From positions 13,133-77,132 of the IMG/VR virus record IMGVR_UViG_3300029585_000085: a DNA stretch of 64,000 nt, one strand, 5' to 3'. The position numbers and the translations under genes are program-made. Positions within the stretch are counted from its first letter, which is position 1. Each line of letters opens with the position of its first letter. Below are positions 9,065 to 9,635 of the stretch, one piece after another. The DNA comes from a virus. Below the pieces are notes generated by a model. It was not told the DNA's origin. It saw nothing but the letters and a program-made list of their open reading frames with translations, and did no database searches.

Positions 9065-9635
9065 GTTGCTGCCCTCCCTTCATAGGGATTCGGCTGTGGC
9101 CCCTTCGGGGGCCCGGCCTTTACGCGGGGATGGTCCTCGCGCGCGTTCGATTCGCGCGTCCGCGTCCGGGTATTCGTACCCTAACGGGTCTAAGACACTA
9201 TGGAATAGGTCTCACGTTCAAAGGCGGCAACCTTTGATTAGACTCAACCCGTCGATGTCATCCTGGGTGATGACTACGCCAACGCCGGGCAACCATAAGG
9301 CTGCACCAACAGCTAAGGAAGAGAATCGGTCTCTCTTCAGTGCTAGGAGCAATAGCCTCGCAGGCAAACCGAGCCCCCGTGCTTCGAGAACGCCTGCACC
9401 CTCGCGGAGTGTGGTGACCAATCCGTGTTCGCTACGGCGAACAGAACGGCCATCCGAACAGAGTCGATCGTTGAAGTTGGATAGTGGTCTACGGACGGAC
9501 CTTGAATACATCCGGTTAACCAGCATCAAGTCACAATGTTCCTCCGCACTTTTCTTTTCTCAGGGAGCGGAGCGGCGCCCTTCTTAGGCGTCCCTCGATA
9601 GAGACCGCCCCTTCTTTCGTCACCAGGAAAACACC
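9065..9635 (+). ncRNA. Candidate large structured non-coding RNA (unassigned class)
   Basis: 571-nt gap with no credible ORF and about ten hairpins, several capped by UUCG/UACG/GCAA loops, plus a tRNA T-loop arm. Confidence 0.65.

Follow-up and report, generated by a model that had tools for sequence, protein, structure and literature searches.

Only a handful of large, elaborately folded bacterial and phage RNAs are known (GOLLD, ROOL, OLE, raiA, and HEARO), and each has opened new biology or new RNA architecture. GOLLD (Rfam RF01998) is carried by phages or prophages and often lies next to tRNAs or has them inside it. ROOL (RF03087) is a phage or prophage RNA of about 600 nt with several pseudoknots, lies near tRNA islands, has no known protein partner or function, and can be very abundant (PMC12286853). 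The association of these two RNAs with tRNAs is unexplained. The phage T4 tRNA cluster encodes smaller stable RNAs of unknown function (species 1 and 2, about 120-140 nt), which are co-transcribed with tRNAs and released by tRNA-processing enzymes. The phi29 packaging RNA (pRNA, about 170 nt) is essential, works with the head-assembly machinery, and is the only precedent for an RNA cofactor in the morphogenesis of a tailed phage. In addition, a survey of IMG/VR contigs, the source of the DNA studied here, lists 8,495 unnamed candidate structured RNAs of DNA viruses, some tRNA-like and some next to capsid genes (Fremin et al. 2023, PMC10690425). That paper describes no large RNA downstream of a capsid gene, its candidate tables were not compared with our loci, and our literature searches found no description of an RNA at this locus.

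We investigated a 64,000-nt stretch of an uncultured phage genome (hereafter the window), in which a preliminary description had proposed a novel non-coding RNA of about 570 nt at 9065-9635. The gap is real: the major capsid protein gene (7676-9064, + strand, 462 aa) ends with TAA at 9062-9064, and the next gene, d1, starts with ATG at 9636. The capsid assignment rests on a match to the phrog_1357 major head protein (E 1.7e-9) and on 27-31% identity to annotated capsid proteins of Streptomyces, Ralstonia, and Komagataeibacter phages, and a JGI record names a 71%-identical relative an 'N4-gp56 family major capsid protein'. The search for capsid homologues gave 1,168 of them. The d1 gene (9636-10025, + strand, 129 aa, Lys/Ala/Pro-rich) belongs to no Pfam or PHROG family, and its N-terminal motif M-x-KK-x-DPLEAAK marks the start of d1 across the family. 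The observation holds: the gap is non-coding and carries a structured RNA on the + strand, and nearly every stem listed in the preliminary description lies where it was placed and is kept in homologues. However, the conserved RNA is about 430 nt (9122-9553) rather than 570.

We next sought to determine whether this structure exceeds chance. The folding-energy z-scores are modest and similar on both strands (-2.87 and -3.15), and the real evidence is covariation. Five distinct homologues (74-86% identical) support 134 base pairs in 22 helices plus a pseudoknot, and 97.5% of the cells are paired, compared with 35-42% when the partners are slid. Thirty pairs show compensatory double changes, compared with 10.7+/-2.3 in shuffles, none of 500 being as high. 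The 3' domain analyzed alone and an RNAalifold consensus also show compensatory changes. Only the five distinct sequences support the 5' half, most double changes come from one homologous locus, L001, against the rest, so there are few independent events, and the structure was partly derived from the same sequences. Many G-U pairs (for example at alignment columns 53/73 and 101/158 in four of five sequences) would be A-C on the other strand, so the + strand is the folded one. Compared with homologue L099, the RNA core is 86% identical, whereas the capsid gene is 81% identical at the nucleotide level, d1 is 58% identical, and the following genes d2 and d3 are 70-72% identical.

The gap begins with a GC-rich hairpin (H0, 9092-9119, with the core GGCCCC-UUCG-GGGGCC at 9098-9113) followed by UUU. 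This hairpin co-varies (helix 1), but an equivalent hairpin follows the capsid stop in locus L096 and in locus L097, which has only a 97-nt gap and no RNA. H0 is therefore the terminator- or stabiliser-like 3' end of the capsid gene and not part of the RNA proper. The 5' edge of the RNA is a tRNA-like minihelix (9122-9165), in which a 6-bp acceptor-like stem (9122-9127 with 9160-9165) stacks coaxially on a 7-bp T-arm (9139-9145 with 9153-9159) to give a 13-bp stack with the T-loop UUCGAUU (9146-9152), and a small hairpin (9128-9136) has an invariant UGG loop. Both stems show compensatory changes (helices 2-4): the T-stem changes from GCGCG/CGCGC to GCAUG/CAUGC, and the acceptor-like stem from ACGCGG/CCGCGU to ACGUGG/CCACGU. 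RNAalifold had instead proposed a long-range pairing of 9123-9129 with 9400-9406, which we replaced with the local acceptor-like stem, which has a double change. Similar minihelices occur in L096 and in L063, where the geometry is exactly 7+5 bp with a G3-U70 pair, and a real tRNA-Met in L079 and a real tRNA-Tyr in L080 occupy the same place, preceded by the same UUUA/C context.

The minihelix is followed by an invariant hairpin (P2, GGGUA-UUCG-UACCC, 9168-9181), which is identical in all five homologues, and by a three-way junction (P3, 9186-9245, helices 6-8) with arms at 9193-9212 and 9218-9237. The second arm has an invariant CGGCAA loop, and arm P3b, in which CAAAGG pairs with CCUUUG, has compensatory changes in 5 of 7 pairs. 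P4 (9248-9289) contains the hairpin GUCAUC/GAUGAC (9257-9274) inside the longest near-invariant stretch (about 32 nt, CGAUGUCAUCCUGGGUGAUGACUACGCCAACG), which is identical in four of the five homologues and differs by one loop base in L099. Because its pairs never vary (helices 9-10), this pairing is predicted but not tested. The middle domain P5 (9298-9358, helices 11-14) includes the hairpin GAAGAGA/UCUCUUC (9318-9338), with three compensatory pairs in the inner hairpin. This 5' half, from the minihelix to P5, is clade-specific.

The 3' part begins with the Pa/Pb helix (9360-9397, helices 15-16), which co-varies and has an A-rich internal loop, GCAGGC-AAA-CCGAGC...GCUUCGAG-AAC-GCCUGC. The 3' domain (9404-9547) is closed by the long-range helix Pc (GCGGAG 9404-9409 with CUCCGC 9542-9547) and contains the hairpin Ph (UGUUCGC-UACG-GCGAACA, 9426-9443) and the long arm Pd/Pe (9456-9480 with 9520-9541), with compensatory changes in Pc, Ph, Pd, and Pe (helices 17-20). 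The preliminary description had proposed a small GUC-UACG-GAC hairpin here, but covariation supports a different pairing, Pf (GGUC/GACC, 9486-9489 with 9498-9501; ACCC/GGGU in L001), with 3 of 4 compensatory pairs. Bases CGGA (9492-9495) of its 8-nt loop pair with UCCG (9511-9514), followed by GUU, to form an H-type pseudoknot (9486-9514), whose pairs are nearly invariant in the window clade (helices 21-22). The likely 3' boundary is a tail of AC plus a U-rich tract (9548-9559, ACUUUUCUUUUC), in which CCGCACUUUU is invariant in the clade. The following 9560-9620, described previously as competing stems, is a branched GC-rich stem followed by CCUUCUUUCG that may be an extra terminator. The stem appears in the predicted fold, but the segment is absent from all four other homologues and has only a weak terminator-type Rfam similarity (E 8.4).

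We next tested whether the RNA belongs to a described family, a match to which had been named in advance as grounds for rejecting its novelty. Rfam 15 covariance models, including those of GOLLD, ROOL, OLE, HEARO, raiA, RNase P, tmRNA, group I/II introns, 6S, and Y RNA, gave no hit in the 64-kb window or in 15-21 related loci. Only a true tRNA was found in 15 related loci, five chance-level hits were found at E<=10 on 8900-9800 (the best at 18 bits against a threshold of 55), and nothing was found at E<=5 in six diverse relatives. ARAGORN finds no tRNA or tmRNA in the window, and the RF00005 model finds no tRNA in the whole 82.7-kb genome. The minihelix has the stacked acceptor stem and T-arm with a UUCRANY T-loop, and a nearby loop carries GG, but it has no anticodon arm, D-arm, or CCA end, as the acceptor-like stem is followed by CCGGG that runs straight into the next hairpin, and it makes up only about 10% of the RNA. 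There are no tmRNA-clan hits, and the acceptor-like stem closes locally rather than joining the two ends of the RNA. Absence of covariation had been set out beforehand as a second ground for rejection, and covariation is present as described above.

We then sought related RNAs at the same locus. Searches of 79 capsid-family loci by blastn and nhmmer with the gap or a two-sequence profile found only L001, and closer relatives were reached through the capsid protein cluster, three of those contigs having gene tables but no DNA. Two scans of viral contigs with exact motifs from the window clade gave only L001's own contig plus chance matches in unrelated coding regions (L082, L085, and others), and a 22-mer scan of metagenome contigs gave nothing. 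In this capsid family, the gap between the capsid gene and d1 is either about 85 nt or about 430-670 nt. Many long gaps share a 3' core, consisting of an A-rich internal-loop helix (GCAAACC...GGAACCGC), a closing helix followed by AC-UUUU, and an H-type pseudoknot, while the 5' halves differ. The motif GCAAACCCUGG..CCAUGGAACCGC occurs in 29 viral and 18 metagenome loci, and 26 of 26 and 17 of 18 testable cases lie just after a capsid homologue of 42-68% identity. A scan of genome contigs with the class motif gave three hits, of which only L131 lies after a capsid homologue. L129 (Alloyangia) and L130 (a Myxococcales MAG) have no capsid gene nearby, about one chance match is expected, and no host could be inferred. 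There is no DNA match in cultured phages for the window gap or the distant 3' domain, and the nearest cultured capsid relatives (27-31% identity) have only 0-60 nt after the capsid gene.

Pa/Pb co-varies in 19 distant sequences, with 48 double-change cells compared with 15.4 in shuffles. The closing helix also co-varies across the distant loci (L006, L018, L019, L036, L043, L071, L106, L119, L120, and others), for example GGUGGC/GCCACC, GGCAG/CUGCC, and GAUGGC/GCCGUC, as do the pseudoknot loop and its downstream partner (CGGCUC/GAGCCG, CGCCGA/UCGGCG, CACCGU/ACGGUG, and CGAUC/GAUCG). RNAalifold on a MAFFT alignment of the distant pseudoknot region recovered only 3 pairs because the alignment was not structural. 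A generic complementarity test of own versus cross partners separated Pa clearly (4.84 against 2.83 pairs) but not Pc or the pseudoknot, whose GC-rich strands pair by chance.

We next examined whether the window RNA belongs to this class. It has the class position between the capsid gene and d1 on the + strand, and the same order and spacing of elements as the distant loci, with Pc a few bases after Pa, the tail ACUUUU at 9548-9553 where the class has AC(C)UUUU, and the pseudoknot hairpin starting at 9486, 67 nt before the tail end (about 65-70 nt in the class). In the Pa/Pb helix, the class has GC-AAACC-[hairpin]-GGAACC-GC and the window has GC-AAACC-...-GAGAAC-GC. R1, a covariance model built from the window clade, gives its top hit exactly in register in 7 of 14 distant loci and a full-length hit in L120, whereas R2, built from distant sequences, hits window 9354-9413 in exact register but only at rank 4 (11.8 bits, E 0.72), and nhmmer profiles of the distant clade do not find the window, so the Pa/Pb comparison alone does not settle membership either way. 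R3, a model of the whole 3' domain from the distant clade, finds non-seed members at E 1e-14 to 1e-3 but does not hit the window RNA, and it aligns L001 full length with both ends in register only weakly (10.9 bits, E 0.27). The links by covariance model are in register but weak, so common descent is likely but not proven, and the window RNA is most likely a divergent member of an uncatalogued class with at least dozens of distinct members, rather than a singleton. That class sits between the major capsid gene and the next head gene in many uncultured tailed phages with this capsid type.

The RNA resembles GOLLD and ROOL in organization, being large, phage-borne, and tRNA-linked, with a conserved 3' part and a variable 5' part, but this is an analogy and not membership. 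Compared with GOLLD, it is about half the size and sits at a fixed position after the capsid gene rather than in a tRNA island, and this genome has no tRNAs at all; compared with ROOL, the secondary structure and genomic context are different. Assembly into multimers was not assayed. The T4 RNAs provide the processing route proposed below, although they lie in a tRNA cluster, and no sequence relation was examined. pRNA has a different fold and genome position, and nothing links the present RNA to packaging. The fixed genomic address is unusual and predicts very high late expression, and close relatives with and without the RNA provide natural controls.

The interpretation in the preliminary description is partly supported. 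A non-coding, elaborately folded RNA directly after the capsid gene, without an Rfam match and with compensatory changes in homologues, is confirmed, but high expression, packaging, multimer scaffolding, and counter-defence are not supported by any data here and are speculation. The gap encodes a genuine structured RNA under selection, and we consider it somewhat more likely than not that it acts in trans. In this view, the RNA would be transcribed with the late capsid message by read-through of the leaky hairpin after the capsid stop, as no promoter is predicted. The promoter and terminator scan also gave no + strand terminator call within the gap. The minihelix would act as a cleavage signal for RNase P, which cleaves acceptor/T-arm minihelices, and the closing helix plus U tract would set the 3' end, followed in this genome by an extra GC stem plus U tract. 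A compact, stable RNA would thereby be released in large amounts late in infection as an accessory factor. The structure, selection, strand, locus conservation, and absence from Rfam come directly from the analysis, whereas co-transcription, processing, and action in trans are inferred, and no function or target was identified. The discrete stable transcript that had been named beforehand as a further criterion was not looked for, as there were no expression data on its existence, ends, or abundance. The minihelix is absent from most members of the class, so RNase P processing cannot be a general feature, and the RNA is absent from many close relatives, so it is dispensable. Consistent with autonomy, the spacing from the tail to the d1 start varies from 12 to 82 nt, and insertions can separate the RNA from the capsid gene (L079 and L052).

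A possible but less likely alternative is a cis-acting untranslated region, either a large folded 3' UTR of the capsid message or a 5' leader of the downstream head genes, which blocks 3' exonucleases or attenuates read-through and would set the high ratio of capsid protein to the minor head and tail proteins. The RNA sits exactly between the most abundant structural gene and the minor ones, no promoter is predicted, it is framed by a hairpin plus U tract upstream and a closing helix plus U tract downstream, and in several relatives the ribosome-binding site of d1 follows the U tract within 12-20 nt. However, about 430 nt with a pseudoknot, a long-range closing helix, and invariant loops is far more than stabilisers or attenuators need, and relatives manage with a single hairpin in an 85-nt gap. 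The distance to the d1 start is not conserved, and the real tRNAs at the 5' edge in L079 and L080 point to a processed stable RNA.

A more speculative and unlikely possibility, which would be of great interest if true, is that the RNA is a new kind of late phage RNA particle or cofactor, made in near-capsid amounts, cut out of the capsid message by the host's tRNA-processing enzymes, and folded into a compact body that self-assembles, as GOLLD and ROOL do, or binds a head protein or a host factor. Its role might then be capsid assembly or packaging, as with pRNA, or decoying a host defence that targets tRNA, and its strict linkage to one capsid family would reflect a functional partnership with the head module.

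A self-splicing or self-cleaving ribozyme, or a mobile element such as an ORF-less intron inserted into the U tract of the capsid terminator, is very unlikely. The distribution is patchy, with at least 7 forced gains or losses, U runs flank the RNA on both sides (UUU-AC...AC-UUUU), and its size and pseudoknotted fold are in the range of group I introns. However, there are no Rfam intron or ribozyme hits at E<=10 in the window or at E<=5 in six relatives, and the RNA interrupts no gene, since the capsid gene and d1 are complete with and without it. No conserved G at the 3' end and no GUGYG 5' end are visible, no homing endonuclease or reverse transcriptase lies next to it, and it is a single copy in the genome. 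A decaying, functionless remnant of a tRNA island or other insertion, kept by chance, is also very unlikely; it would account for the truncated-tRNA appearance of the minihelix, the real tRNAs in relatives, and the many relatives lacking the RNA, but it is already contradicted by the compensatory changes that maintain 22 helices, by conservation equal to that of the capsid gene and much higher than that of the neighbouring genes, and by the persistence of the core motifs in phages whose capsid proteins are only 42-68% identical.

A protein-coding gap can be all but dismissed, because the 173-codon ORF across it (9066-9587, + strand, TTG start) has no PHROG hit, is broken by 1- and 2-nt indels in L001, and changes by compensatory substitutions in stems rather than at third codon positions, while different ORFs and strands are open in different relatives. 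Its translation is Ser/Arg/Pro-rich, as expected for an out-of-frame reading of GC-rich DNA. Automatic gene calls, including antisense ORFs, nevertheless cover the homologous region in L099 to L102. Gene callers place spurious 'hypothetical proteins' over the RNA, so the protein databases contain artefacts derived from it.

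We first examined the surroundings of the candidate RNA. The window is part of an 82.7-kb IMG/VR virus record with direct terminal repeats, and its head module comprises a portal-like gene (13-1332), a Mu-F-like gene (3533-4471), a scaffold-like gene (6698-7636) whose homologues carry PF06810, the major capsid gene (7676-9064), a 571-nt gap, a small Lys/Ala/Pro-rich gene d1 (9636-10025), and then d2, d3 and a neck protein. The capsid protein matches phrog_1357 and is 27-31% identical to annotated capsid proteins of cultured phages. A 453-codon ORF runs antisense to the whole capsid gene (7694-9055, - strand), which is a typical shadow frame of GC-rich coding DNA and not evidence of a gene. 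The gap itself contains a 173-codon ORF (9066-9587), but this is not a gene, because it has no family hit, its translation is Ser/Arg/Pro-rich, and the homologous region of the nearest relative carries 1- and 2-nt indels, with different frames open there.

We next sought to determine whether the structure in the gap is real. Folding energy alone is weak evidence, with z-scores of -2.87 on the + strand and -3.15 on the - strand, and the decisive evidence comes from homologues, in which the preliminary description had asked for covariation as a test of its claim. Only one of 80 capsid-family loci from IMG/VR, L001, matched the gap by sequence (75% identical). The 90%-identity cluster of the closest capsid protein yielded three more distinct sequences, the contigs L099 (identical to L100), L101 and L102, while two further contigs show a 519-520-nt gene-free gap at the same place but did not contribute DNA to the alignment. 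On the five-sequence alignment, RNAalifold predicts 135 pairs, 28 of them with compensatory changes. Our curated model has 134 pairs in 22 helices plus a pseudoknot, in which 97.5% of cells are paired, compared to 35-42% when the partners are slid by 1-3 columns, and 30 pairs show changes on both sides, compared to 10.7 +/- 2.3 in shuffles (0 of 500 as high) and 2-4 when slid. Only five sequences support these counts, most double changes separate L001 from the rest, and part of the structure was derived from these same sequences. The 3' domain alone gives the same picture, and frequent G-U pairs fix the + strand as the folded one. The RNA core is 86% identical to L099 at the nucleotide level, whereas the corresponding values are 81% for the capsid gene, 58% for d1 and 70-72% for d2 and d3. 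The d1 gene thus evolves much faster than the RNA next to it; the first half of d1 is a low-complexity Lys/Ala/Pro-rich stretch after a conserved N-terminal motif (M-x-KK-x-DPLEAAK) that is shared across the family, and d1 has no Pfam or PHROG family. Automatic gene calls of 102-164 aa lie entirely on the homologous RNA, on different strands in different contigs (L099 4556-4864, - strand; L100 2367-2675, - strand; L102 4487-4861, - strand; L101 650-1144, + strand). They are almost certainly false proteins derived from the RNA, and public protein collections therefore hold artefacts from this locus.

The hairpin H0 (9092-9119) also follows the capsid stop in relatives that lack the RNA, so it belongs to the capsid gene. 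The RNA proper starts at UUU-A9122 with a tRNA-like minihelix, in which a 6-bp acceptor-like stem (9122-9127 with 9160-9165) is stacked on a 7-bp T-arm (9139-9159, loop UUCGAUU), together with a small hairpin whose invariant UGG loop could, by inference, mimic the D-loop contact. It is followed by an invariant UUCG hairpin (9168-9181), a three-way junction (9186-9245), P4 (9248-9289), which lies inside a 32-nt near-invariant stretch where one loop base differs in L099, and P5 (9298-9358). The 3' domain consists of the Pa/Pb helix (9360-9397), the closing helix Pc (9404-9409 with 9542-9547), the hairpin Ph (9426-9443), a long arm Pd/Pe capped by the hairpin Pf (9486-9501), whose loop pairs with 9511-9514 to form the pseudoknot, and the tail ACUUUU (9548-9553). 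Bases 9560-9620, a 60-70-nt insertion between the RNA tail and the d1 ribosome-binding site, occur only in this genome; they fold into a branched GC-rich stem followed by CCUUCUUUCG, a U-rich run, and may be an additional terminator. The stems listed in the preliminary description are thus confirmed, with one exception, as its GUC-UACG-GAC hairpin is replaced by GGUC/GACC plus the pseudoknot.

We then compared the RNA with known families, since a hit to an existing Rfam family had been named in advance as an outcome that would count against novelty. Rfam 15 gives nothing at gathering thresholds for the window, and for 15 related loci it gives nothing apart from one true tRNA. Only chance-level hits appear at E<=10, and nothing is found at E<=5 in six diverse relatives. 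ARAGORN finds no tRNA or tmRNA, and the whole genome has no tRNA and only one copy of the RNA. Literature searches found no description of an RNA at this locus, although a survey of 8,495 unnamed IMG/VR candidates (PMC10690425), with which the RNA was not compared, may include pieces of it. The observation in the preliminary description is real. Its interpretation is partly supported, in that the main inference of a novel ornate RNA stands, but the size is corrected from about 570 nt to about 430 nt, and the RNA is placed, as a probable member, in a broader, previously uncatalogued class tied to one capsid family of uncultured phages. We are nearly certain that this is a structured functional RNA, and it is likely that it does not belong to a described family.

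To investigate this class, we marked the start of d1 by its N-terminal motif across the capsid family. The capsid-to-d1 gap falls into two groups, about 60-100 nt or about 430-670 nt, while a few gaps are intermediate and a few exceed 1 kb. Many long gaps share three features in the same order: a helix with an A-rich internal loop, GC-AAACC-[hairpin]-GGAACC-GC, flanked by co-varying outer pairs; a closing helix that begins a few bases later and whose 3' strand is followed by AC(C)UUUU; and a hairpin starting about 65-70 nt before the tail, whose loop (YUACGG..) pairs with a downstream ..CCGG followed by UU. Exact-motif scans found 29 viral-contig and 18 metagenome loci, and of the testable ones, 26 of 26 and 17 of 18, respectively, lie just after a capsid homologue of 42-68% identity. 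Two of three genome-contig hits have no capsid gene nearby and fit chance. In 19 distant sequences, 90.6% of the Pa/Pb cells are paired (70.5% shuffled; 33-42% slid), and 48 cells show double changes (15.4 shuffled). For Pa, Pb, Pc, Pf and the pseudoknot together, 83.7% of cells are paired in 11 sequences (38-48% slid), and 36 cells show double changes (12.7 shuffled). Several loci without the strict motif (L012, L073, L014, L002 and L053) carry recognisable variants. On a capsid-protein tree, the strict motif occurs in 27 of 78 rows, in both halves of the tree, and at least 7 changes are forced, while short-gap lineages cluster. The nearest relatives of the window clade are L096 (270-nt gap) and L097 (97-nt gap). 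The element is therefore old in this family and has been lost or exchanged repeatedly. The gap of L096 (2085-2354), the sister lineage of the window clade, contains the capsid hairpin, a T-loop minihelix (GUGCACG-UUCAACU-CGUGCAU flanked by UCGCG/CGCGA) and further stems, but none of the 3' core motifs, and it may be a truncated or different RNA.

We next asked whether the window RNA belongs to this class. The locus, strand, size and order of modules are the same, and the window RNA has the same 7-mer GCAAACC, a similar tail and the same spacing from the pseudoknot to the tail. The covariance model R1, built from the window clade only, puts its top hit exactly in register on the Pa/Pb motif in 7 of 14 distant loci, each 1.5-9 kb and searched on both strands; in two more loci an in-register hit ranks lower, and R1 also aligns the distant locus L120 end to end (E 0.023). 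The model R3, built from the distant clade only, aligns the window's relative L001 full length with both ends in register (E 0.27), but it does not report the window itself. The model R2, built from distant sequences, hits window 9354-9413 exactly in register, but only at rank 4 with E 0.72, which leaves membership by this helix undecided, and nhmmer profiles see nothing. We consider common descent likely, and the alternative is that an unrelated RNA occupies the same site.

How the RNA may work is suggested by its relatives. Two distant relatives carry real tRNAs at the 5' edge, between the capsid gene and the structured RNA. L080 has the capsid gene, a hairpin, tRNA-Tyr (5534-5620; GUA, with an encoded CCA), about 390 nt of structured RNA and then d1. 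L079 has tRNA-Met (7635-7708; CAU) about 180 nt upstream of Pa/Pb, preceded by CACUUUUA, which resembles the window's CCUUUA. L063 and L096 carry minihelices like the window's, and the one in L063 is an exact 7+5-bp helix. RNase P cleaves acceptor/T-arm minihelices. This led us to infer that the RNA is cut from the read-through capsid transcript at about 9121/9122 and accumulates as a stable species, like the stable RNAs of the T4 tRNA cluster. What the analysis establishes is a folded RNA under purifying selection that lies in the late head operon, with no promoter-like site nearby, and is bounded by a hairpin plus UUU upstream and by a closing helix plus U tract downstream; its mechanism is inference, because no cultured phage carries the RNA and no expression data exist. 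A released, trans-acting RNA is about as likely as not, and we have no evidence as to what it does in trans. Its organisation parallels that of GOLLD, being tRNA-linked with a conserved 3' part and a variable 5' part (PMC12286853), but neither GOLLD nor ROOL is related to it by model. Two further observations favour an autonomous module over a cis-regulator: the distance from the tail to the d1 start varies from 12 to 82 nt, and insertions separate the RNA from the capsid gene in L079 and L052.

The site appears to accept insertions. In L079, about 2.2 kb of extra DNA (5400-7630) lies between the capsid gene and the tRNA-Met/RNA module and starts with an ORF containing Cys-x-x-Cys motifs, and L052, L064, L072, L016 and L005 also have enlarged intervals (1.3-1.7 kb). 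In L013, about 515-765 nt after the capsid stop, the DNA between d1 and d2 reads like a small HNH-type endonuclease gene, as judged by eye from the sequence only, without a database search. Most large ORFs in the structural region of the window (609-860 aa) have no Pfam family. The window also encodes a UvrD/REP-type helicase (46744-48282, - strand; PF00580, 1.8e-27) and a 633-aa protein with an N6/N4 DNA methylase domain (49418-51319, + strand; PF01555, 1.2e-30).
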